Assembly: GCA_964246795.1 (NCBI GenBank)
Contig: CAXTRR010000013.1
Coordinates: forward strand, 2,895 to 66,894
Origin: an uncultured Terriglobus sp.
GTDB taxonomy: Bacteria; Acidobacteriota; Terriglobia; Terriglobales; Acidobacteriaceae
Length of the DNA stretch: 64,000 nucleotides
Reading direction: 5' to 3'
The notes beneath the pieces were generated by a model, which had not been told where the DNA came from, did no database searches, and worked only from the letters and a program-made list of their open reading frames with translations. This document shows, piece after piece, positions 52,618 to 64,000 of this stretch (position 1 is the stretch's first letter; every line of letters begins with the position of its first letter). Made by a program: the position numbers and the translations under genes.

Positions 52618-53613
52618 TTACGAATTGCTGTCATCAAAGGAGCCGCCGTCGTCTCCCCCGAAGCCGCTATCGCCTGAATCGAAATCACTGCCGGTGTCGA
52701 ATCCGTTGCCGGAATCGCTATTGTCCGAGAGATTGTCGCCATCCGTATCGGCCAGGCCATAGCCGCCCGTGCCGGAGTAGCCGCCCGTGCCGGAGTCGCC
52801 GCCCGTGCCGGAGTCGCCCAGGAAATTCGACCCGCCCCGGCGGTCCTCAATGTCCGAGCTCAAGCCGCTGCCGGCATCGGCCTGCTGCGTGACTGCGTCA
52901 TGAAAGGCACTGTCACCGCCGCTGCTGTCACCCGGATTGCCGGTGTCTGTAAATCCGCGGCTGTCGCCCAGCACATCGCGGTCTGAGCCGTATCCGGCGG
53001 CATGGCCAAATCCATGCATCATGCCTTCCAGTCCCTGCGTCAGCAGCTCCCCGGCGGCCACGCCCGCAGCCACCTGCATGGCGCCCTGCAGGAAACCGCC
53101 ACCGCCAAAGCCGCCGCCGCCCATCATACCTCCGCCAGAGGGCGCATACCCATAGCCAGGCTGCCCATAGGCGGGCTGGCCATAGCCGTAGCCCTGAGGT
53201 GCATATTGCGGGGGAGGATAGGGCTGCCCCTGCGGCGGCATCGGCTGGCCGCCCTGGTAAACCGCTGAGCCATAACCCTGTCCCGGCTGCCCGGCAGGCT
53301 TCGCCGGGCGGTTTGGGTCCGGAGTGTGCGAACCGAAGATCTTTTCCAGAAAGCTGGGCTGGTGCTCCGTGGACCCGCCTGTTTGCTGCTGCAGCGCCTG
53401 CACCTGCTCACGTGCCTGCTGCAGTTGCGTTTGCGCCTGCTCCAGCGCGTAGCTCTGCACCAGCACCGTCTGGCACAGGATGTAAAGAGCGTTTGGATCG
53501 CCACCGAGACCGTTCTGGATTTCGCGCTGTGCTTCCGCATCCTTCGCCGTCTCCGGCGCGTTCTTTACGCGGCCAATCAAGCCGTCCAGCAACTGCTGTT
53601 CCTGTGATGTCAT
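52618..53613 (-). CDS. DUF2076-domain protein with acidic Gly/Ser/Asp-rich repeat tail
   Basis: MTSQEQQLLDGLIGRVKNAPETAKDAEAQREIQNGLGGDPNALYILCQTVLVQSYALEQAQTQLQQ matches the DUF2076 N-domain. A Gly-rich middle is followed by GGFLQGAMQVAAGVAAGELL. Three 18-nt tandem repeats at 52761-52814 encode (D/Y)SGTGG. Confidence 0.75.
   Translation of the reverse strand: MTSQEQQLLDGLIGRVKNAPETAKDAEAQREIQNGLGGDPNALYILCQTVLVQSYALEQAQTQLQQAREQVQALQQQTGGSTEHQPSFLEKIFGSHTPDPNRPAKPAGQPGQGYGSAVYQGGQPMPPQGQPYPPPQYAPQGYGYGQPAYGQPGYGYAPSGGGMMGGGGFGGGGFLQGAMQVAAGVAAGELLTQGLEGMMHGFGHAAGYGSDRDVLGDSRGFTDTGNPGDSSGGDSAFHDAVTQQADAGSGLSSDIEDRRGGSNFLGDSGTGGDSGTGGYSGTGGYGLADTDGDNLSDNSDSGNGFDTGSDFDSGDSGFGGDDGGSFDDSNS
52761..52814. 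repeat. 3 x 18-nt tandem repeat inside the DUF2076 gene
   Basis: AGCCGCCCGTGCCGGAGT occurs twice, then CGCCGCCCGTGCCGGAGT. Confidence 0.8.
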
Positions 53614-53721
53614 CGTCGTTCACTCCTCCGCACGTTGACTTCACGTGACCCGCCCGCTGTAGAGACGCTGGAAGTGAAGCAACGTTTGCCCGCGTTCGTG
53701 CTGCTGCCTAAGACAACGTTT

Positions 53722-54696
53722 TTACGCCGGCAGCAGCAGCATCGCTCCCCAATTCAGGCCAGCTCCAAAGGCGCTCAACACCACCGGTCCGCCGGGAGCC
53801 GGATGAGGTCGAAGATACTCCTCCAGCGCAATCAGCAAGGAAGCTGACGAGGTGTTCCCGTACCTCTGAATGTTCGTGAAAAAACGGTCAGCCGGCAGCT
53901 TCAAGCTACCCGCCACCTTCAGCAGCAGGTTCAGGTTGGCCTGGTGCAGCACGTATTGCTCCACAGCTTCCGCCGCAATGCCGTTGCGCCGCAGCAGCTC
54001 CGTGATGGCCGCGGGCAGCTTGCGAGAGGCGCGCAGGATCACCGAGCCGCCCTCCATGTGCAGCTGCTCGCCCTCCATGTAGAGCACGTCGGCACCGCTG
54101 CCATCCGTGTAAAGCACCGCGTCCGCCAGGCGCATCTGCGGGGAAGGTGGCCTGGACCCGGAACTGTCGACCGGCATCGTCTCCGCCGGTTTCGTGGGAT
54201 CGATCAAGCACGCACCGGCTCCGTCTCCAAAGAGGATGGCCGTATTCACCCCTGCGGGCGTGCGCTCTATGCGGCGGCTCATGATTTCCGTCCCAATCAC
54301 CAGCACCTTGCCCACGTGCGGCGCGAAACGCATCGCCATCGTCATCGCAATCAGTGACCCGGCGCTTGCCACGGGGATGTCCAGCGCGGGCGTTGAGTTC
54401 AGTCCCAGCCGGGCCGCCACCGTGCTGGCCGGGCCGGGGCAAAATCGCTCGGCTGAGCCGCTGCTCACCAGAATCATGCCCACTTCGGCCGGCGTGATCT
54501 CCGTGCGCTGGAGGCAGTCCTGCGCCGCCAGCACGGCCAGGTCCGCCGTGCTCTGCCCATCCGCGGCATACCGGCGCTGCTCAATGCCACTGACGGAGCG
54601 GATCCACTCCGCCGGCTGGCCCACCAGCGCGGCAAGCTCGCTGTTGTCCACGATCCGCTCGGGCAGGTAACAGCCAGTCGCACGCAGAAAGCTCAT
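53722..54696 (-). CDS. KAS III (FabH)-fold enzyme with active-site Cys replaced by Ser; acyltransferase-type
   Basis: FabH-like throughout (ERIVDNSELA..., VLHQANLNLL, YGNTSSASL, FGAGLNWGA). The AACAG nucleophile motif reads VASAG. Ser111 codon AGC = complement of 54364-54366. There is an extra Pro/Ser-rich insertion DPTKPAETMPVDSSGSRPPSPQMR. Confidence 0.85.
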   Translation of the reverse strand: MSFLRATGCYLPERIVDNSELAALVGQPAEWIRSVSGIEQRRYAADGQSTADLAVLAAQDCLQRTEITPAEVGMILVSSGSAERFCPGPASTVAARLGLNSTPALDIPVASAGSLIAMTMAMRFAPHVGKVLVIGTEIMSRRIERTPAGVNTAILFGDGAGACLIDPTKPAETMPVDSSGSRPPSPQMRLADAVLYTDGSGADVLYMEGEQLHMEGGSVILRASRKLPAAITELLRRNGIAAEAVEQYVLHQANLNLLLKVAGSLKLPADRFFTNIQRYGNTSSASLLIALEEYLRPHPAPGGPVVLSAFGAGLNWGAMLLLPA

Positions 54697-54887
54697 GCGG
54701 CTATCTTTTCATTCCTGTCTTGCCCGGGGTAAAGCTTTTCCGGGGGAACGTACTGCGACTTTCGTTCCAGTGTCCGCAGGCGCGGGCGCGGATACACTCA
54801 GGCCAATCCTTCGGCGGTCCGGCCGTCGCGATGAGCTCTCCTGCCCAGGCGTTCCCAATTTCCGCGCTCAACGCGGAAACGGCAAAC

Positions 54888-54910
54888 GCTCCGAGTTAGA
54901 GGCTCGGAGC
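54888..54910 (-). terminator. Hairpin, possible terminator after the carrier-protein gene
   Basis: GCTCCGAG-N7-CTCGGAGC (8-bp stem). On the minus strand it is followed by GTTTGCCGTTTCC. Confidence 0.3.
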
Positions 54911-55216
54911 GTTCGTGCGTCGAAGGAGGTGAGATGCCCATGCGGCCAATTCTGGTCAAATGGGGCAAGTTTCGGTTGCAGATACCTACTGAAGTAGTGA
55001 TCTATCTGCTGCTGAGAGCGCTCAGCCATTTGTAACTCGAATGGACTTGGCTGTTTCACAAACCCGTTCCCCTCGCCCCGGAAAAGCGGGGGACGGCCTT
55101 TCCGCTCAGGAACGTCTTCCCGTGCGGAATGTTCCTAGTGTGATGCAGGACGGCTAGCCTTTGCAAGAGTTTTCTCGACCGCCAGCGCCGGATTTCCCTC
55201 CAAGAGAGGACCGGTG

Positions 55217-55525
55217 CTACTCCGCCTTGGCCGCCAGATAGCTGTCGACCTTGTCAATCGTGTCGAACTTGCGCGCTGAAAGATCGCTGTCCGGGATGGA
55301 GACGCCGAACTCCGACTCAAGCCCGCTCACAAAATCGGGCAATGCGAAGCTGTCCAGCAGCCCGGAAGAGAACAGGGATTCGTCCTCCTCCGGCGTGATT
55401 TGCTTGCCCGCTACCGCCTGCAACACTTTTAGGATCCCCGGCTTCCTGTCCACAGCATTCTCCTTCTTCAAAAGTTTCTGATCCACGGCAGCCATTGTGA
55501 TGCAGAAACGCTCAGAGCTTGCCAT
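55217..55525 (-). CDS. DltC-like acyl/aminoacyl carrier protein
   Basis: LFSSGLLDSFALPDFVSGLESEFGVSIPDSDLSARKFDTIDKVDSYL aligns with the DltC/ACP phosphopantetheine-attachment region (LFESGLLDSM...). The start is either 55525 or 55495. Confidence 0.75.
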   Translation of the reverse strand: MASSERFCITMAAVDQKLLKKENAVDRKPGILKVLQAVAGKQITPEEDESLFSSGLLDSFALPDFVSGLESEFGVSIPDSDLSARKFDTIDKVDSYLAAKAE

Positions 55526-55537
55526 CGAGCGGCGTTT

Positions 55538-57478
55538 CTACGGCACATAGCCGCTGTAGGCCGAGAGCAGATCCGCCACCAGCGCATCGGCCAGCGCCCG
55601 GTAGCCCGGACCCGTCAAGTGGGTGTGGTCCGGCTGGGCATAACCCGCCGCCACCCAGCGGCCCACTGAGCCAAAACCACCCTGCCGCGCGCGCCAGTCC
55701 CAGAAAGCGCAGTCGTGCGTCCGGCAGACCTCACGCTGTGCGTTCAGGATGCGGTCGGTTCCGCTGTAGGGTGCATAGTACCGGTGTGCAATGCGGTGGG
55801 CGCGGCGGCCACGGCCCACCACGGTGTACGTTGTCGAGCCGATGGAGCGGTCACCCGGCCCAAGCACCAGAATGGACGCTTCCGGAGCGGTGCGGTGCAG
55901 CATGTCAATGAGCCGCGCAAAGGTAGCGCGGTATTCCTCGCCGCCCCAGCGCGCGGCAGCTTCGTTGGTTCCATAGGCCAGCACGATCAATTGGGGCGCG
56001 GCGGCGGCCATGTATCCCTGGAAAAGCCGCTGGTTCCAGCGCAGCAGCAGTGGCGCTTCCGCGCCATTTATGCCGATGGACTCCCACGTGATGCCGGGCT
56101 GCAGAGCGACCGTCCCTAGCAGCCGGACAGGCCCACCCCCCTGCGAGGTGAAGCTGAAGTGGTGTGACCCTGCCGGGCAGTCATAGTGGAGCGCGCCAAG
56201 GGCAGGGCTGCTTCCATCCGCGGAGTTCTCCGGCGCGTTCAACTGGGCCGTAGTGTCGGTCGTCTCCGCGGGCTCCGGCAGAGTGGGAGCCGTGTTGGAG
56301 GGCGCGGTGGCTGGAATGCTCGTGGACGCGCCCATACCTGCGGCTCCGTAAAGCACCGGGCCGCCGGTGCCGGCAGTCGACACCGTTTCCACGGCAAAAC
56401 CGTTGTCGGCAAACTGAAAGCTGCCGCCCCCCGCCTGCCGTAGATAGTGCACCTCCAGCTTCAGGCAGGGTGCATCCAGTGAAGCGGCGTCACCGGCTCG
56501 CTCCGACTGAATCGCGACGCCGCCCAGTCCGAGCAGGCCGTCACCCAGTTGAGTGAAGTGCGTGCCCAGCGTGGTCCAGGACCCGCTCTGGCCGCGTCCC
56601 GAACCCAGAATGCGATAGCCGGCGAACGGGTGCCCCGCGTAGGAGAAGCCCACGCCGCCATCGCCGAAGCGGTTCTGCATGCGTGCGCGCGCCTGGCCGG
56701 TGAACATGTCTGCAGCGGTGTGCGAGTCGCCCCACTGCAGGATGCGAACGGGCTGGTCACCCGGTGACTGCTCCCTCTGCTGCAACGCAGCAAAGAATTT
56801 TCGCAAAGCCTGGGGAAACTGCAGCGCCGTTCCACCCTGGGCAAGCATTTGCGCGATGGGATTGCTGGAAAGCAGCGGCGAGGTGGTGCGCGCCTCGGCC
56901 GCGGCGGAAAGGTCCTCCGCGGAACTTTGCGGAAGGGAGGAATCCTCATCCCCGGCGCGCTGGGGGGCCTGGGTCCGGGGTGCCGTCGCCTGAGGCACCG
57001 TTGCTCTGGGAACCGACGCCTGGGGCGGCGCTGCCTGGGCCATTGTTGCCTGGGGTGCCGGGGAAAGGAGTGGCCGCGCAGTGGGAGCCGTCGATGACAC
57101 TGGCCCTAGAGCAGTTCTCTTCGCGATGCTCGCCGCCGGCAGCTGCAGGGGCGTTTGCGGCCGCAGGGGCGGGCTGAATGCCTGGAATGGCGAATTTCCG
57201 GCGTGCCGGGAACCGCTCGTACTTCTGGCAGCGGTTGAAACTGAGCCTGGCCGGCCACGGTGAGAAGCAGAGCTCGTCCCTGCCGAACTGTTCCGGCCTT
57301 TCGCGGGCTCTGCGGCGGAGTGTTTTCCGGAACGTGTTCCGGGCGGACGCGATCGTGCCGCGGGCGCATGAGTGGAACGGGGTCGAGCCGGCTTTGAGCT
57401 TTGCAGGTGGAAGGCGGCATGCCGGGCACCCTCTGCCCAGAGCGACCCCGCGGCCAGAACCGGACACAGCAGCAACAA
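55538..57478 (-). CDS. Exported SGNH-family protein (DltD/PatB-like), paralogue of 6400-8070, with long Pro/Ala/Ser-rich linker
   Basis: TTG start and short hydrophobic N-terminus. About 230 aa of low-complexity linker. SGNH blocks ILQWGDSHTAADMF, LIVLAYGTNEAA, DHTHLTGPGY. RMQNRFGDGGVGFSYAGHPFAGY parallels ILQERFGDAGHGYNLGAKPWAWY of the 6400 gene. Confidence 0.75.
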   Translation of the reverse strand: MLLLCPVLAAGSLWAEGARHAAFHLQSSKPARPRSTHAPAARSRPPGTRSGKHSAAEPAKGRNSSAGTSSASHRGRPGSVSTAARSTSGSRHAGNSPFQAFSPPLRPQTPLQLPAASIAKRTALGPVSSTAPTARPLLSPAPQATMAQAAPPQASVPRATVPQATAPRTQAPQRAGDEDSSLPQSSAEDLSAAAEARTTSPLLSSNPIAQMLAQGGTALQFPQALRKFFAALQQREQSPGDQPVRILQWGDSHTAADMFTGQARARMQNRFGDGGVGFSYAGHPFAGYRILGSGRGQSGSWTTLGTHFTQLGDGLLGLGGVAIQSERAGDAASLDAPCLKLEVHYLRQAGGGSFQFADNGFAVETVSTAGTGGPVLYGAAGMGASTSIPATAPSNTAPTLPEPAETTDTTAQLNAPENSADGSSPALGALHYDCPAGSHHFSFTSQGGGPVRLLGTVALQPGITWESIGINGAEAPLLLRWNQRLFQGYMAAAAPQLIVLAYGTNEAAARWGGEEYRATFARLIDMLHRTAPEASILVLGPGDRSIGSTTYTVVGRGRRAHRIAHRYYAPYSGTDRILNAQREVCRTHDCAFWDWRARQGGFGSVGRWVAAGYAQPDHTHLTGPGYRALADALVADLLSAYSGYVP

Positions 57479-57774
57479 AGATATCCGAGTCAGTTGCAGC
57501 GCTCACACCCCTCCGTAGCTTAGACGATTCAGTTCCGGAGAGCAGCCGGATTTGACCCTGCACAAAGGTTTTTCCACGGCCCGGTTGCGGAGCGGCATAC
57601 CTTTCTCCTAAGTTTCGCTTCCGTCCCGCATCTTGCACAGCCGGCAGCACTCGCTGAAGCGAACATATAGCGAAGAGACTTCACGTATTCCTTTCACTTT
57701 CACCGCCATCCCTATCGAAAGGTAAGTGCTTGTAAACAGGACTCCTAGCTTTCCCGTTTTGGGACTTTTCACCA

Positions 57775-57803
57775 TTGACACCGGCACCGTCGCTGGTTAT
57801 CTT
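57775..57803 (+). promoter_or_regulatory. Sigma-70-type promoter candidate
   Basis: TTGACA (57775-57780), a 17-nt spacer, then TATCTT (57798-57803). Lies ~265 nt upstream of the zinc-ribbon gene. Confidence 0.4.
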
Positions 57804-58070
57804 CGGTGAACTTCTCAAACATGCCGAGGGGGCAGCGAGAGTGACTGGTTTTCCACAGATGTTTCAGGCGCCGGCGGTGATCTCTAACCGCCGCCAGGCT
57901 GACCCGCCGCGGAGACACTGGCCGGAGCTGCCCATGCATTCACGGATACGGGACGGGCACACTGCAAAGGCCAGGAGAGCCTTCGCCACGGACACGATCC
58001 ACAGCAGCCGGGAGCCGCATTCCCCGACGCAAGACGCGGCCAACCCGGACGTAGAGCACTGGAGCAACAC

Positions 58071-58544
58071 GTGAAGTATTTTCGAAGGGAATTAAAAGTA
58101 TGCGAAGGGTGCGGAGGCCTATGGGTCCGCACCGGAACCGAAGCAGGGGTGTATTGCCGCCACTGCTGCCCGCTACTGGCCGATCTGCCCGGCCGGCGCA
58201 AATACAGCCCGGGCCGGCCATGCAAAGCGCGTGGAGGGTCCACGACGGCGCTGCACGTGGTTCACGCAGCCGCGCTGGAGAAGGAGGAAACGCCACGCGG
58301 GCGCTGCCGGCGAAACTCCATGCTGCCGACAGTGGAGCACGATGCAGAAGCGGACCGGTCAGCCGCCACTCGCCGTGCCGCCATGAGCCTGCACCAGGGC
58401 GGTCAGGCTACGTCCCAAAAGACGGTAGCGAGGGCGGAGGAAGTCTCTGCATCCGCAGCGGCGTTTCTGCCCGCAGCGGTCGAGATGCCCCGTTTGCTCT
58501 CGATTGTCCCCATGATCCATGCCGTGGCAGGAGGTGCCCGATGA
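58071..58544 (+). CDS. Hypothetical zinc-ribbon protein (CxxC...CxxCC) with disordered tail
   Basis: GTG start with GGAG 7 nt upstream. N-terminus KVCEGCGGLWVRTGTEAGVYCRHCC. The stop overlaps the next start (ATGA at 58541-58544). Confidence 0.4.
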   Translation: MKYFRRELKVCEGCGGLWVRTGTEAGVYCRHCCPLLADLPGRRKYSPGRPCKARGGSTTALHVVHAAALEKEETPRGRCRRNSMLPTVEHDAEADRSAATRRAAMSLHQGGQATSQKTVARAEEVSASAAAFLPAAVEMPRLLSIVPMIHAVAGGAR

Positions 58545-59179
58545 AGCTGTTGACAATGCCAAGCCATAGAGAAAACACGAACGTTGCCAACTCTGACAGC
58601 ACCTCCCATGCCGTGAGCCAGATATGGGCGACCGAGGGCAACCTGGCGCGGGCCGTGGTCGCCATACACGCCGAGGCGCACAGACCGGCCAATGCCCAGG
58701 CCGAGCTACCGCAGCGGCCCGCGCTCCGTGTGGTAATCACGCCGGAGACGGCCTTCTACCGCAAGTACACAGAGGCCATGCTGCGGAGGTATGCGGTGAT
58801 GAAGCTGCAGAAAGGCCGCGTTCCCTCCCTGCTGGGGCGCGAACTCTTCCGCGGAAAGGTGACGAGTTGCCGCATCCACGGCTTTGACGACATGATCCAC
58901 TACGTGCTGGATGTGGAGAGCTGCCTGAAGCTGCTGAACGCCGACCAGCAGAAGGTGGTTTTCCGGGTGGCAGTGCAGGAGTACACCTTGGGGGAAGCGG
59001 CGGCGATGCTGCGCTGGAGCCTGCGCTCGACCCAGCGCCGCTACAACGAGGCAATCGACGAACTGACCGCCATCTTTCAGAAGCGGAAGCTGATGGAGAG
59101 GACGCCAGGCCTGAAGCAGCAAAATCGCTGTCAAGAGGGAGAAGATGGGGGCGTGGCTGTAACTTACACTCCCGAATAG
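58541..59179 (+). CDS. Sigma-70 region-4-like HTH regulator (divergent ECF-like?)
   Basis: GGAGG RBS and ATG at 58541. AFYRKYTEAMLRRYAVM is region-2-like. LLNADQQKVVFRVAVQEYTLGEAAAMLRWSLRSTQRRYNEAIDELTAIF is a region-4-type HTH. The family assignment is tentative. Confidence 0.45.
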   Translation: MKLLTMPSHRENTNVANSDSTSHAVSQIWATEGNLARAVVAIHAEAHRPANAQAELPQRPALRVVITPETAFYRKYTEAMLRRYAVMKLQKGRVPSLLGRELFRGKVTSCRIHGFDDMIHYVLDVESCLKLLNADQQKVVFRVAVQEYTLGEAAAMLRWSLRSTQRRYNEAIDELTAIFQKRKLMERTPGLKQQNRCQEGEDGGVAVTYTPE

Positions 59180-59291
59180 ACTTGCGGGCGGAAAATAATT
59201 GGCAGGGTATTTATGCCCGGCTTGTTATTCTTAATAAGTGAGTCAGGAGAGCGGCAAGACGCTCTTCAACAAGTATCTCCAAAGCAAACGG

Positions 59292-59320
59292 AACGGGAGG
59301 CCTTCGGGTCTCCCGTTTTG
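59292..59320 (+). terminator. Strong hairpin with UUCG tetraloop: terminator/attenuator between regulator and structural genes
   Basis: AACGGGAGGCC-TTCG-GGTCTCCCGTT (11-bp stem including one G-U pair) followed by TTG. It lies 45 nt upstream of the ATG of the tail-fibre-like gene. Confidence 0.55.
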
Positions 59321-59364
59321 CATTGCGGGTGTTTGCCAACTTCACTCACTTCAGAGGAGCCTTC

Positions 59365-62300
59365 ATGCACTTCGGTTTTCCAAAGCGCGCCGGCAGCGCA
59401 GCGCCTCCTGCCATCAGGCCGCATCCAGCAGGAGTCCCTGGCTGGCGGCTTTTCAAGCTGTATACCTCGGCTCTTGGTTTAAGCACCGCGTTGGCGACCA
59501 CAGTGGGCGTCCTGTTGCCGCTGGCGGTGTTGCCGGTGTCGGCGCAGGCGCAGCAGGCCGCCACGACCGCCATTACAGATACAGTGCTGCAGGCCAATGG
59601 CTCGCCCGCGCAGGGTGTGGTGCTGATCAGCTGGCCGGCGTTTACCGGGGCAAGCGGCGTTGCCATTCCGCAGGGCAGCACCTCTGTCACGCTGGGCGGC
59701 AATGGCTCGCTGAGTGTGCAGCTGGTACCCAATGCGGGCAGCACGCCGCTGGGCAGCTTTTACACGGTGGTGTACCACCTGAGCGATGGCACGGTAACGC
59801 GGGAGTACTGGTCAGTGCCCGCAAGCAGCGGTGCGGTCGCGCTGAGCGCGGTGCGCACGTCTGTGCTGCCGGCCTCGGTCGCGGTGCAAACCGTCTCCAA
59901 GCAGTATGTGGACACGGCGATTGCGCGAGCTGTGCAGGGTGGCGCGGTTGCAGGCGGCACAGTTGCAGCGGGGCCGGGGGCGGGGAACACCACGCCCTAC
60001 GTTCAGAAGGCGGGCGACACGATGACCGGACCGCTGCAGCTTTCCGGTGATCCGGCCACCGGCCTGCAGGCCGCCGATAAAAGTTATGTGGACGGCAATG
60101 TGGCCGCGGCCCAGGCCGGCCTGAACCAGAAGGTGAGCAAGATACCCACGGGCACCCAGATCGTAACGCAGCCCGCCGGAACACAGCTGCGGACCAACCG
60201 GCTGAACGCAGAACTGTATGCGAGCCAGTTCTTTTCCAGCTTTGGCAATGACGGCATTGCCAACGCCTTCAACGCGCCGGAGTGCGGGGCAAATTGTCAG
60301 GTGATTGCCGAGCCGGATTACAACGGCAACGACTCACTTCCCGCCGGCAAGTTTGGCGCGCATCTTTCTGACCGGCGGCTGGGGCAGCTAAGCGAGACGT
60401 TTACCGGCCGGGAGGGTGGCGGCCTGCAGTATGGCACCAACATTGTGCGCACGGACGCGCAGCACCCGGCCACTGTAACCAGTACGCTGCAGACCACGGC
60501 GTTGCGGCTGCAGCAATCGGGCCTGCGGGGCGGCAACAATCTGTTTCCGGAGGGCGTCACCTCCGCGCTGCCGTACTTCAAAACGACCTATGGCACGCTG
60601 ATCGAGCAGGCCGATAACTATGCGCAGGGACAGCACGTGATGGATACGCGCGTGACCAATTGTTACGGCGTGGGCGATTGCCTGATCCATGGTGATTTCA
60701 TGAGCAGCTCGGGCGGCTTTCGCGATGCGGCCGACGAGGGCGCGCACCCGGCCGACCTGCAATACACCGAGGACACGCGCGTGCCACGGGGCAACTGCGG
60801 CACGGGCTGCACCACCGGTTCGCAATCACTGAAGGTGAACTTTACGAGCGGCGCGGGTACACAGGGAGATGGACGTTTTCTGGTCGATCTGGAGCCCTCA
60901 AAGGGCTACAGCGGCAATGCGCTGATTGGTGGTGACTCCGGTGGCTACCCGGCCGCGACGGCGGTTTTTACCGGCACCAGTTTTCCAGTGAGTACCTTCT
61001 TCAGCACGGCGGGGGCGGCGCTGCCGCAGAGCAACAATATGGCACCGGGAGCGGTGACGCTGCCGATTGCGACGGGCGGCGTGATTGCGGGCTTCAGCAC
61101 CAACACGGCAAGCGCACCGGCCGGCAGCGGCACGGCCTGCGTGGCGGATGCCATCAGCGGCGGCACCGCGACCCCGGAAAACTATGAGATGGCCCCCTAC
61201 ACCGTGGTGGACGGCACGCACCTGAGACTGACTCTCTTGAAGCCGCATGCGACAGGCTCAGTGGTGGCCATGGGCGGATTGTGCGGCTACGGCCTGGAGC
61301 AGACAATTGACAGCTCCAACGGCTATCAGCAGGTGTTTCCGATTGTTGGGTCAAGCAGCGGAACGTCACTCTATGTGGCGTCTGGCCTGACATCGATTGT
61401 GGGGCGAAACTTCAGCACGAGCGGGTATCTGAATCTGCAGTTCCAGGTGACCTCAGTGGTGCGGTCGAACAATGTGGTGACGGTGAACATCACCAACACG
61501 GCCGCGGGCGACCTGACCGGCTTGCCGCTGACGTTGGCAGGTGTGGCGGACGCGAGCTTCAACGGGACGTTCAATATGTCGACCGTGGGGAGCGGCCAGT
61601 TCAGCTATCCGCAGACAGGGCCGAATGCGAGCTCCAGCGGCGGCACGCTGGTGATTGTGACAAGCGGCTACAACATCTACCCTATGGCGGAAGTGCTGGA
61701 CGTTTACAACGACGCGACCGGCAACGTGGACGGCCAGATGACGCTGGCACCCAACACCGTGCCGTGGGCGGCGGGCGACCGCGTGACGCAGCCACACTAC
61801 TTCCAGCAGCGTGTGGGCGCGGACGTGACGTACATCACGCAGTACACACCGCGGCCAAGCGCTTATCAGCCCGCCGGCATTTATTACCAGGGCAACAACG
61901 GCGGCGGGCTGCGCGGCTGGGTGATTGCCAACAACACGCCGGCGCAGAGCTACCTTGGCGATGGCGGCACGCATGTGCCTCCGGACTTTGCCTTCGGCAA
62001 CAGCGGCGTCTGGAATACGACGGCCGACTTCCAGGCAGGCGAGCAGACGGCCTTCCGCATGCATTGCAACGGCCGCGGGTGCAGCCGCTTTGACAGCACG
62101 TATAACCTGTTTGCGCTGGACAACAGCGTGGGCGGCGGCTCTTACGACGCGGTCACATGGGCCCCGCAAACCAGCACCATGACGTGGAACATGCGCGGCG
62201 CGCAGTACAGCATGAGTCCCACGGCCATGACGGTGGGCACGCTGAATGTGACGAACCTGAATGCAAGCCACATCAGCGGCAGCACGGCGGCCACCAGCAC

Positions 62301-62814
62301 GGCGCAGGGCTCGGTTCAGCTTGGACCGACGGCGACCAGCTTTATCCTGTCGAACGTGGCAAGCAGCGGCGCGGCCAGTGACATGACCGGGCTGGCACCG
62401 AGCGCGACGATTGACACGACAAACGCGGCAAATATCACCGGCGGCACGCTCGATCCGGCGCGTTTGCCGCCCGGCATCGGGGGTGGGTCGTGCGCTTCGA
62501 CGATTGCGTTCAGCGCGGCACCAGCCATCGCGGTGAGCTGCAGCAATGCGCTGATCCACGTGCCGCTCACCGGCAACATGACCGGCATGAGCTTTACGGG
62601 ATTGCAGGCGGGCCAACGTATCACGCTGGTCTTTCAGGTGGGCGGTACGGGTGGGTACACGGTGCAGTGGCCATCACAGGTGCATGGCGGATTTGCGACG
62701 AGCACCAGCAACACGTCGCCCTTCTATGCGCAGGCGGGCAAGTACTTTGTGCAGCAACTGGTGGTGGACGCCGATGGCGCAACGCTGCTGAATCCGGGGG
62801 CGGTGAATCAGTGA
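59365..62814 (+). CDS. Secreted giant protein with phage tail-fibre-like motifs
   Basis: GAGGAG RBS and ATG at 59365. Sec-type signal ...LAVLPVSAQAQQ. Ig/CarbopepD-like first domain. KQYVDTAIA and GDTMTGPLQLSGDPATGLQAADKSYVDGNV match the phage tail-fibre repeat (GGTMTG.L) and collar motifs. Gly/Thr/Ser-rich beta-rich body. Confidence 0.8.
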   Translation: MHFGFPKRAGSAAPPAIRPHPAGVPGWRLFKLYTSALGLSTALATTVGVLLPLAVLPVSAQAQQAATTAITDTVLQANGSPAQGVVLISWPAFTGASGVAIPQGSTSVTLGGNGSLSVQLVPNAGSTPLGSFYTVVYHLSDGTVTREYWSVPASSGAVALSAVRTSVLPASVAVQTVSKQYVDTAIARAVQGGAVAGGTVAAGPGAGNTTPYVQKAGDTMTGPLQLSGDPATGLQAADKSYVDGNVAAAQAGLNQKVSKIPTGTQIVTQPAGTQLRTNRLNAELYASQFFSSFGNDGIANAFNAPECGANCQVIAEPDYNGNDSLPAGKFGAHLSDRRLGQLSETFTGREGGGLQYGTNIVRTDAQHPATVTSTLQTTALRLQQSGLRGGNNLFPEGVTSALPYFKTTYGTLIEQADNYAQGQHVMDTRVTNCYGVGDCLIHGDFMSSSGGFRDAADEGAHPADLQYTEDTRVPRGNCGTGCTTGSQSLKVNFTSGAGTQGDGRFLVDLEPSKGYSGNALIGGDSGGYPAATAVFTGTSFPVSTFFSTAGAALPQSNNMAPGAVTLPIATGGVIAGFSTNTASAPAGSGTACVADAISGGTATPENYEMAPYTVVDGTHLRLTLLKPHATGSVVAMGGLCGYGLEQTIDSSNGYQQVFPIVGSSSGTSLYVASGLTSIVGRNFSTSGYLNLQFQVTSVVRSNNVVTVNITNTAAGDLTGLPLTLAGVADASFNGTFNMSTVGSGQFSYPQTGPNASSSGGTLVIVTSGYNIYPMAEVLDVYNDATGNVDGQMTLAPNTVPWAAGDRVTQPHYFQQRVGADVTYITQYTPRPSAYQPAGIYYQGNNGGGLRGWVIANNTPAQSYLGDGGTHVPPDFAFGNSGVWNTTADFQAGEQTAFRMHCNGRGCSRFDSTYNLFALDNSVGGGSYDAVTWAPQTSTMTWNMRGAQYSMSPTAMTVGTLNVTNLNASHISGSTAATSTAQGSVQLGPTATSFILSNVASSGAASDMTGLAPSATIDTTNAANITGGTLDPARLPPGIGGGSCASTIAFSAAPAIAVSCSNALIHVPLTGNMTGMSFTGLQAGQRITLVFQVGGTGGYTVQWPSQVHGGFATSTSNTSPFYAQAGKYFVQQLVVDADGATLLNPGAVNQ

Positions 62815-64000
62815 AAAGACGAGTGAATCGATTGCGAAGCAGAGTTCCTCTGAACATCTTCTGGGCAGCCATCTGGCTGCCCTTCTTTTTTGGCGCGGAG
62901 TTGATTCAAACACCCGTGACGCTGGCGCAGACGGGCGGTCTGCCCGCAGCGATGAGCGGCGATTGCACGACCTCCGCCGCAGGTGTGGTGACGTGCACGA
63001 AGAGCAACGGCGCCGCGCTGGCACCGAGCGCGACGACGGACACAACGAATGCCGCAAACATCGGCGCGGGTACGCTGCCTTCCGCGCGGCTGGCTGTGGG
63101 AACCGCGGGTACGCTGCCGGCCTACACGGTGGGCGGCCTGCTGCAACCGGCGGCCGCGGCACCCTTCAGCGCAAATGCAGGCCCGGTGAAGGCAGCGCCC
63201 TTCAGTGTGAGCGCGCAGAGCTCTGCGGGACCGGCGGTGCTGGGGCCGAGCGGCGGCGACACAAGCTTCCGCTATGCCAACATCGCCAATGGCGCTCGGC
63301 TGATTGCGGGCGGCAGCGTCTCACAGGTGAAGACGTTTGTGAACAGCGTGAGCGGTGTGAGCGCGCTGTATTTCGAGCTGTGGCGCGTGAACGGCTCCGG
63401 AACGTTCAGCCTGGTGGGCCGGTCACAAAACCTGCTGAGCGCGACGACAGCGGGCACGGCAAATACTTACACGCTGACGACGCCAATTGCGGCACGCGCG
63501 GGCGACTATCCGGCGATGTACCTGGAGGGCAGCTTCAGCGCGACGACGAATGTATTCTCCGCGCCGACGGGACTGGCTTCTTCGGTGTATCCGTCGTACA
63601 ACGTGCGCAACGCGGGTATGACCTCGACGATGGACTTTGTCGGCGGTACGACGAGCGCGATTGCGCCGTATGTGAATTACGAGAACCCGATCGAGGTGTA
63701 CCTGAGCGCAGGCCCGGTGGTGGCCTGGCTGGGGGATTCCAAGGCGGCAGGCACGCCCAGCAGCGGGGACTACCTGCAGGCGGGCGGATACAACGGAACG
63801 TGGGTTTTCCCCATGGCGCCGGTGCTGACGCCTTCGTCGACTGGCAGCGCGGCCGCGGTGGGCACGTCACTCATTGATGCAGGGAACCAGCCGTGCACTT
63901 ACCTGCAGCGCACGCTGGGGTACAGCTGCGCGAACTTTGGCGCGCCGGGTGCCACGACGGCACAGCTGCTGAGCAATGTGCTGCCGGCCGCGCTGGCGGC
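62811..64000 (+). CDS. Exported protein with tail-fibre-like N-module and C-terminal SGNH esterase domain (partial; runs off the window)
   Basis: GTG 62811 overlaps the previous stop (GTGA). I translated the frame by hand to 64000 with no stop. Signal MKRRVNRLRSRVPLNIFWAAIWLPFFFGA. LAPSATTDTTNAANIGAGTLPSARL is shared with the upstream protein. SGNH block I VVAWLGDSKAAG (GDS 63732-63740) and block II NFGAPGATT. Confidence 0.7.
   Translation, partial: MKRRVNRLRSRVPLNIFWAAIWLPFFFGAELIQTPVTLAQTGGLPAAMSGDCTTSAAGVVTCTKSNGAALAPSATTDTTNAANIGAGTLPSARLAVGTAGTLPAYTVGGLLQPAAAAPFSANAGPVKAAPFSVSAQSSAGPAVLGPSGGDTSFRYANIANGARLIAGGSVSQVKTFVNSVSGVSALYFELWRVNGSGTFSLVGRSQNLLSATTAGTANTYTLTTPIAARAGDYPAMYLEGSFSATTNVFSAPTGLASSVYPSYNVRNAGMTSTMDFVGGTTSAIAPYVNYENPIEVYLSAGPVVAWLGDSKAAGTPSSGDYLQAGGYNGTWVFPMAPVLTPSSTGSAAAVGTSLIDAGNQPCTYLQRTLGYSCANFGAPGATTAQLLSNVLPAALA

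Follow-up and report, generated by a model that had tools for sequence, protein, structure and literature searches.

The stretch of DNA considered here, called the window, comprises 64,000 nucleotides (nt) from an uncultured Terriglobus species of the Acidobacteriaceae. We focus on its final part, positions 57775-64000, where four genes, A to D, encode a small zinc-ribbon protein, a protein with a helix-turn-helix (HTH) domain of the sigma-region-4 type, and two large proteins that resemble phage fibres and carry signals for the general secretory (Sec) pathway. A preliminary description had placed all of these features correctly, and most of them proved to be conserved in relatives. With the relatives taken into account, we consider it fairly probable that the region is the 5' end of a phage-derived, domesticated cluster of about 19-20 kb, similar to a gene transfer agent (GTA), fixed in Acidobacteriaceae chromosomes and equipped with a late switch of a Q- or GafYZ-like kind. 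The features are as follows (strand in brackets).

57775..57803 (+): promoter-like site of the A-B operon, TTGACA-17-TATCTT (consensus scan and conservation)
57804-58070 (+): leader of the A-B operon, 267 nt
58071-58544 (+): open reading frame (ORF) A, small zinc-ribbon protein with a basic tail, 157 amino acids (aa), GTG start
58541-59179 (+): ORF B, 212 aa, C-terminal sigma-region-4-type HTH (residues 115-181, nt 58883-59083), ATGA overlap with A
59199..59231 (+): late-promoter-like element, with a TTGGCA box (59199-59204), 21 nt, and the extended -10-like TTGT-TATTCT (59222-59231) (conservation)
59289..59325 (+): hairpin t1 between the late promoter and C, 14-bp stem, UUCG loop, UUUUGC tail (folding)
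59365-62814 (+): gene C, 1149 aa, Sec-exported phage-fibre-like protein, GAGGAG 5 nt before the ATG
59365-59550 (+): signal peptide of C, residues 1-62 (n-h-c pattern)
59899-60093 (+): fibre motifs of C, KQYVD, GDTMTGPLQL and DKSYVD (sequence)
62811-64000 (+): gene D, 5' part, running past the window end, GTG start; exported second fibre module with an SGNH esterase domain
62811-62927 (+): signal peptide of D (n-h-c pattern, 9 orthologues)
62863..62892 (+): hairpin t2, GGGCAGCC-ATCT-GGCTGCCC and a T-run, inside the signal-peptide codons of D (folding and 9 orthologous loci)
63003-63131 (+): module of D in common with C, 43 aa, 58% identity to C residues 1005-1047
63732-63740 (+): GDS of D, SGNH block I (sequence)

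The cluster in related genomes

In T. aquaticus genomes and an ENA contig, genes A-B-C-D are followed on the same strand by genes for the large terminase (TerL; PHROG_2, 4e-27), a HipA_2 kinase, a DUF3037 protein, the portal (PF04860, 7.7e-47), three unannotated genes, a head-tail adaptor (PHROG_442, 3.8e-18) and more genes. Phage genes stand 3' of D in all related loci, where C and D adjoin TerL, portal, adaptor and other structural genes beyond what the window itself covers; 5' of the cassette, the window has none. The earlier remark that no other phage genes are in view is therefore right for the upstream part of the window, but it does not extend to the related loci with their TerL, portal and adaptor. 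The proposal of a cellular secreted system without phage context fares worse, as the cassette lies in a cluster with terminase, portal and probable capsid genes in all of them.

Scanning one genome per GTDB species for the portal gave at least 534 confirmed loci, of which 80 were kept with 10 kb on each side, and gene order was mapped by tblastn in about 90 loci. The survey of the four-gene cassette that had been suggested for the Acidobacteriota thus found it as part of something larger. A few loci from the scan carry non-acidobacterial labels of metagenome-assembled genomes, on short contigs, and these are taken to be mis-binned. Two arrangements were found. Type 1 reads A-B-C-D-TerL-HipA-DUF3037-portal-I-J-K-L(adaptor)-M-N-O-P-Q, then purE-purK, and is carried by the relatives of the window, Terriglobus, Silvibacterium and E. 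aggregans-like loci. Type 2 reads (A)-B-I-x-J-K-L-M-N-O-C::SGNH-TerL-HipA-DUF3037-portal-P-Q and is carried by most Granulicella, Edaphobacter and Tunturiibacter. The rearrangement appears to track the host genera. The block C-TerL-HipA-DUF3037-portal stands before I...O in type 1 (L001-L012) or between O and P in type 2 (L013-L050, L085, L095). Type 1 loci encode C and D in two genes, type 2 loci in one fused gene whose product measures about 1500 aa.

The core genes of the cluster are intact. A single match covering at least 80% was obtained for the portal in 91 of 91 loci, TerL in 68 of 71, K in all 34 and the HipA-like gene in 81 of 82. Between genera, conservation is highest for K (74-95% identity) and lowest for C (31-62%). 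The conservation of K, along with its size and its place in the gene order, makes it the probable capsid. Proteins I, J, K, M, N, O and P had no significant match in PHROG and Pfam, and profiles of K and O gave insignificant matches only against the PDB.

The position of the cluster in the chromosome is also kept. The genes purE and purK adjoin Q in 57 and 53 loci, respectively, in both gene arrangements, and beyond them lie genes for 2-oxoacid dehydrogenase E2, LipB and E3; the left flank in G. rosea consists of genes for a hydrolase, serine hydroxymethyltransferase, a topoisomerase and other housekeeping functions. No integrase, repressor or replication gene was found within 10 kb of either end (L001, L004, L006, L041, L095). 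The missing integrase, the intact core genes and a flank shared by most loci point to a domesticated cluster, passed on vertically and a candidate for a GTA-like element. The constancy of the purE/purK flank, together with the lack of integrase, repressor and replication genes, disfavours independent insertions.

This bears on a rival reading, in which a temperate prophage of the ordinary kind, active or decaying, entered many Acidobacteriaceae chromosomes independently, with A-B as its late-gene activators and C-D as its tail fibres. Terminase, portal and adaptor genes are indeed present, relatives of K occur on ten IMG/VR contigs, and the type 1 and type 2 orders look like mutual circular permutations. 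However, the missing genes for integration, repression and replication on both sides are hard to reconcile with such a prophage, as are the purEK neighbour that stays constant in 57 loci of many genera and the intact core genes in at least 534 species. The cluster measures only about 20 kb, its GC content is that of the host, and B and K are unmatched in 50,697 phage genomes. IMG/VR contains no more than these ten relatives of K, and within the window the region has the same GC content as the rest. An ordinary prophage is therefore distinctly unlikely in our judgement, and the pattern is that of a phage remnant of GTA size, domesticated and handed down vertically, rather than of recurrent lysogeny. 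The idea that the region is the edge of a prophage or tailocin continuing past 64000 was thus correct in outline, the element being phage-like. A tailocin is rejected by the presence of TerL, portal and a probable capsid, and an ordinary prophage fits poorly with the fixed purEK site and the lack of an integrase. Eichorst et al. (2018; PMC5900883) grouped Terriglobus-type prophages as Cluster 153 and reported a single terminase and a single portal for nearly every subdivision-1 genome. Cluster 153 may be identical with the present cluster.

Between TerL and portal lies a pair of genes for a HipA-like kinase and a DUF3037 protein (L001:16596-18438 and equivalents, about 80 loci), fixed in 81 of 82 and 79 of 84 loci, respectively. 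The pair matches PDC-M66A (3.2e-7) and PDC-M66B (8.8e-9) of PADLOC as well as Pfam HipA_2 and DUF3037; its possible roles are those of an addiction module, a kill switch and defence cargo. Elsewhere in the cluster, Q is a protein of about 82-133 aa with a C-terminal transmembrane segment (L024:13484-13732), and the 130-aa product of a gene that follows I matches a holin family weakly (PF09682, E=0.0034; L095:11702-12094); both are candidate lysis genes. Outside the cluster, the window encodes on the reverse strand (52618-55525) a DUF2076-like Gly/Ser/Asp-rich protein, a FabH-like KAS III and a small acyl-carrier protein, and the same trio adjoins the element in L004.

The putative regulators and their control region

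ORF A was found wherever DNA 5' of B is available among related loci, and its N-terminal 40-55 aa are 50-77% identical in every one of them. The cysteine pattern is C11-x2-C14-x14-C29-x2-C32 (nt 58101-58166), and the conserved part runs M.YLR..LKVCEGCG.LW.RT, about five residues, VYC..C, and then a basic tail. A GGAG Shine-Dalgarno sequence precedes the start by 6 nt in the window and by 6-8 nt in all loci compared. Since the 17 called homologues are 65-127 aa long, mostly 65-90 aa, the 157-aa ORF of the window is a version lengthened by a non-conserved tail. Searches with A against Pfam, PHROG and PADLOC gave no significant match.

The nature of B is more involved. The matches of the window protein to region 4 of sigma factors are weak (PF08281, E=0.003; PF04545, E=0.0098, both under the Pfam gathering cut-off; a PHROG sigma family, 1.3e-5); among 814 homologues, PF08281/PF04545 is precomputed for many and some are annotated as sigma factors by NCBI. 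In an AlphaFold2 (AF2) model, residues 115-181 have a predicted local distance difference test score (pLDDT) above 90, and the top Foldseek matches of this segment are the -35-binding domains of extracytoplasmic function (ECF) sigma factors, with target-normalised TM-scores of 0.8-0.86 and a root-mean-square deviation of 1-2 A at an E-value of only 0.02. The domain superposes on 3hug, 2h27 and 3vfz. A sequence search of B against the PDB gave no usable match, and its profile gave insignificant matches only. Region 2 is the part of a sigma factor that binds core RNA polymerase, recognises the -10 element and melts DNA. Its domain, Sigma70_r2, is absent from B (Pfam, NCBIfam) and from the precomputed domains of 120 homologues, and ahead of region 4 the model shows only helix 68-89 and one short helix. 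Lacking region 2, B does not qualify as a true sigma factor, and its resemblance is confined to the -35-binding domain. Of the label "sigma-like" given to B before, the region-4 part stands and region 2 is missing. The companion claim of a zinc-ribbon and region-4-type pair joined by an ATGA overlap agrees with both the Cys pattern and the fold. A and B are plausibly transcription factors.

One could still take B for a true alternative, ECF-like sigma factor and A for its zinc-binding anti-sigma, with an RNA polymerase-B complex reading the late promoter directly and no antitermination. The similarity to region 4 in sequence and fold, the sigma-factor labels at NCBI, the small zinc-binding protein encoded beside B and the conserved TTGGCA box 5' of a -10-like element would all be expected. 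However, neither sequence searches nor the model show region 2, with one long helix standing before region 4, and TTGnTATTCT resembles a housekeeping extended -10, from which the TTGGCA box lies 21 nt away, too distant for a canonical -35. A lacks the HxxxCxxC motif, and its gene is upstream of B rather than downstream. We regard this alternative as quite unlikely.

The gene that comes after A-B is C in type 1 loci, I in the type 2 loci L085 and L095, and F (the HipA-like gene), directly, in L033 and L064. A-B always head the cluster, whichever structural gene comes next, and on this ground they would control the cluster as a whole and are not private to the fibres. The view of a private regulator of the fibre genes is thereby not supported, as A-B head the cluster even where C lies 6 kb away (type 2).

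The pair appears to have its own promoter. A consensus scan of the forward strand of 57775-64000 found one sigma-70-like site, with TTGACA at 57775-57780, a 17-nt spacer and TATCTT at 57798-57803. One such match is what chance alone would give (1.0 expected), but the form and position are kept: TTGAC[AGT]-17-TAnnnT lies 250-340 nt 5' of A in 10 of 12 related loci, which bears out the promoter first proposed from the window. An ACTTTC-like block follows the element in related loci. The leader likewise keeps its length (250-340 nt), and may be an operator or a regulatory RNA; an Rfam search of 57600-59400, leader included, gave no match. When the leaders of the window, L001, L004, L033, L064 and L095 are compared, blocks are kept within subgroups, for example GCAAAGGCCA..AGAGCCTTCGCCACGGA in one and CCCTATAGCAACCTG..CGACCGCTGAAAA in another.

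A second control element follows B. TTGnTATTCT is invariant 3' of B in 16 of the 17 loci examined, and an A-rich/TTnGC box of the TTGGCA type lies about 21 nt 5' of it across loci. Next comes the UUCG hairpin t1, already noticed in the window, whose stem-loop (59289-59320) has a free energy of -24.5 kcal/mol (z -6.9). When a hairpin was sought within 110 nt 3' of TTGnTATTCT, one of at least -15 kcal/mol strength with a T-rich tail (usually TTTTGC) was found in 14 of 16 loci, compared to 0.3% of shuffled controls put through the same procedure. The stem sequence varies from locus to locus, which means that in t1 the structure is conserved and the sequence is not.

The second hairpin, t2, is found in an unusual place. 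It is weaker than t1 (-18 kcal/mol, z -4.2) and overlaps the codons for the signal-peptide h-region of D (AAxWLPFFF), where the Ala-Ala codons are always GCA GCC. Nine of nine orthologous loci keep its stem, GGCAGCC/GGCTGCC, around a 4-nt loop that is free to vary, and one compensatory change occurs in the stem (pair GAGCAGCC/GGCTGCTC in L011). This is a case of dual coding, with a terminator-like hairpin and a signal-peptide h-region in the same stretch. Taken together, the late-promoter element, its box, t1 and t2 fit the anatomy of a Q/GafZ-type switch (16/17, 14/16 and 9/9 loci).

The exported fibre-like proteins

C has more than 780 homologues, all in Acidobacteriaceae (Terriglobus, Granulicella, Edaphobacter), and many of them are about 1500 aa long with an SGNH domain fused C-terminally. 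The N-terminal domain is the most conserved, and the distal part is variable or SGNH-fused. The fibre-like character of C that had been read from its motifs, which are in place, finds some support in structure comparison. The AF2 model has a pLDDT of 66, with a beta-sandwich (64-166), a beta-rich body (470-810) and a C-terminal domain (1041-1145) predicted confidently. Foldseek finds phage neck and tail fibres (PDB 8keg_a at 8.5e-4; 73 BFVD matches at E<=1e-3, the best being a fibre of Synechococcus phage S-SM2 at 4.8e-10), although global TM-scores are low. At the level of sequence, C and D matched no fibre family in Pfam and PHROG, and a search of C against the PDB gave no usable match. The label of trimeric autotransporter adhesin, attached to some homologues by the Joint Genome Institute, was rejected, as Pfam shows no anchor domain.

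Unlike phage fibres, which are expected to assemble in the cytoplasm, C and D carry export signals. Among C homologues with a complete N-terminus, 102 of 114 have a basic n-region, an uncharged hydrophobic core and an AxA site before the conserved mature start, and most failures are truncated gene calls. The same pattern with an AxA-type site occurs in 9 of 9 D orthologues examined, in line with the signal peptides first reported for both proteins. The body of C is Cys-rich and beta-rich, and it contains several invariant Cys pairs, which fit an oxidising compartment.

The start of D overlaps the stop of C (GTGA/ATGA) in 6 loci, and in 3 loci D has a separate ribosome-binding site. It had been asked whether D truly begins at the ATG at 62952, in which case the signal peptide would be a translated terminator. 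This was rejected, since 9 orthologous loci keep the called start, the n-region, the h-region and the AQA-type site as well as the hairpin. Of the SGNH catalytic blocks I-V (GDS ... G ... GxND ... DxxH), the part of D within the window has block I and a possible block II, and Pfam gave no match on this truncated protein. D orthologues at 52-57% identity carry PF13472 (L010, 1.7e-12; L012, 6.5e-11), and the full-length orthologues in L010, L012 and L001 exceed the cut-off of this family. The earlier assignment of D as a putative SGNH protein is thus supported by orthology.

Metagenome contigs from soil, freshwater and the sea (L097-L176) contain again the motif SATxDTTNAANIxxGTL that C and D have in common, which is probably a widespread joint motif of phage fibres. 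A metagenome scan with D was uninformative, returning mostly the short DTTNAANI fibre motif in unrelated contigs. Another SGNH protein is encoded on the reverse strand at 55538-57478, divergent from A (646 aa, signal-peptide-like N-terminus, PF13472 at 4.6e-12). In Terriglobus, loci L001 and L004 keep its gene beside A, but G. rosea does not. The protein may serve the element as an accessory esterase.

With such signals it is natural to ask whether C-D form a cellular secreted adhesin and glycan-esterase system that acts outside any particle and is merely linked to the phage-derived cluster, sharing its promoter. Conserved Sec signal peptides on both proteins and conserved Cys pairs, typical of exported proteins, are what such a system would have. 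The hairpin t2 sits between C and the remaining genes, the block is separable (C, D and TerL do not stand between B and the HipA-like gene in L033 and L064), and another exported SGNH protein, at 55538-57478, is divergent upstream. However, C lies inside the cluster in essentially all loci, and in type 2 loci it stands between O and TerL amid structural genes. It also follows the logic of tail fibres, with a conserved N-terminal domain and variable C-terminal modules, and its fold matches are phage neck and tail fibres. A secreted system apart from the particle therefore seems unlikely to us.

A proposed domesticated GTA-like element and known systems

Under the favoured reading, a domesticated phage-derived cluster with a late switch, A and B would be made from their own promoter. 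B, probably with the zinc ribbon A, would then use its region-4-type HTH to bind the TTGGCA box in the late promoter, and would activate transcription, drive RNA polymerase through t1 and t2, or both. As a result, the whole set of particle genes would be expressed together. C and D would serve as the receptor-binding and glycan-deacetylating fibres of the particle. Being exported through Sec, they would meet the particle only outside the cytoplasm, after export and lysis, or would act on the cell envelope; alternatively, they may work on the envelope or exopolysaccharide (EPS) of the producer or the recipient, for example in receptor destruction or EPS deacetylation. The element as a whole would most likely be a domesticated producer of GTA-like particles. 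More tentatively, and with considerable doubt, we suggest a family-wide, vertically inherited GTA-like element that unites a zinc-ribbon/sigma-region-4-like switch, Sec-exported fibres and a HipA-like/DUF3037 pair fixed in the block of head genes.

Several points weigh against this reading. In the window genome, the continuation of the cluster past 64000 is predicted from synteny with relatives. We infer the late switch by A-B, antitermination included, from anatomy alone, and A and B have no homology to Q, GafY or GafZ and no sequence or fold match in the PDB to Q, AlpA or similar proteins. The hairpins t1 and t2 could be plain attenuators or elements of mRNA stability. Small terminase, tail tube, tape measure and endolysin were not recognised in the cluster, and the best PHROG match of K has E=0.028, in 2 of 18 sequences. 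The HipA/DUF3037 toxin-antitoxin pair could by itself stabilise a decaying prophage. The Sec signal peptides on C and D are the least explained feature, in conflict with the cytoplasmic assembly of a tail fibre in 102 of 114 and 9 of 9 cases. A literature search found no virion fibre with a cleavable Sec signal, and none is known to us, an argument that C and D might lie outside the particle.

Acidobacteriaceae rank with the most abundant bacteria of soils, and we know of nothing on gene exchange among them. If the reading is true, the cluster, intact and at one chromosomal site in at least 534 species, would be a strong candidate for a GTA family not described before and not belonging to the Alphaproteobacteria, and the "prophages" counted in acidobacterial genomes would have to be recast. 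A literature search found no description of the element as a GTA-like cluster, and the regulator pair A-B is undescribed so far. In the control region, a zinc-ribbon protein, a protein with sigma region 4 only, two terminator-like hairpins and a promoter element that does not vary make up a switch open to direct testing. Fibre proteins exported through Sec in a head-tail cluster would challenge the assumed cytoplasmic assembly of virion proteins, and t2 in signal-peptide codons is a neat example of dual coding.

Parts of the element find counterparts in well-known systems. The C-terminal domain of B superposes on region 4 of ECF sigma factors (group 4), but B lacks region 2 and its Pfam region-4 scores stay under the gathering cut-offs. 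The O-antigen deacetylase gp63.1 of phage G7C is an example of a tailspike with an SGNH esterase domain. Like fibres of this type, C and D appear modular, with a conserved N-terminal part as putative attachment site and a distal SGNH domain, the motifs KxYVD and GDTMTGPL, and a second fibre gene with a joint module in common. They differ in their conserved, cleavable-type Sec signal peptides and Cys pairs, and in matching no fibre family of Pfam or PHROG. The two genes between TerL and portal in relatives match PDC-M66A/B, and PDC-M66 of PADLOC is DS-6 "HipAD", a HipA-like kinase/DUF3037 pair validated as a defence toxin-antitoxin (PMC12548924, PMC13092281). In contrast to HipAD in defence islands, the pair is fixed here in a phage-derived structural cluster, past the window end.

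The arrangement of the control region recalls Q, PR' and tR' of lambda, where the regulator gene lies immediately 5' of the late promoter, a strong intrinsic terminator follows within about 100 nt and all structural genes come after (PMC11150451). A and B are dissimilar to Q-lambda, Q21 and Q82, and promoter binding, pausing and antitermination are only putative here.

The closest resemblance is to GTAs, although the cluster belongs to another phylum and no component has detectable sequence homology. The small partner is a zinc ribbon here and a DnaA-like HTH there, and the regulators head the cluster here and are encoded elsewhere there; the acidobacterial cluster also has fibre genes with signal peptides within it and an embedded HipA-like/DUF3037 pair. 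GTA particles package random host DNA in pieces smaller than the cluster and transfer it, which for the acidobacterial cluster is putative. Like RcGTA and the Caulobacter GTA (CcGTA), it is a phage-derived head-tail cluster of about 15-20 kb that lacks integration and replication genes and is vertical within a bacterial family (PMC6363796, PMC9638019, PMC11150451). GafA has a tentative sigma-factor-like DNA-binding domain and is preceded in some lineages by a gene for a small DNA-binding protein (PMC9638019), and a dedicated activator of this build, as in GafA of RcGTA and GafY/GafZ of CcGTA, is what A-B resemble. In the Caulobacter GTA, a terminator stands behind the first gene and is read through by GafZ, whose binding element is placed between -35 and -10 (PMC11150451). 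The acidobacterial cluster shares with it a long leader, a putative binding element in the promoter and, behind the first gene, a terminator-like hairpin, which by analogy would be read through here as well.

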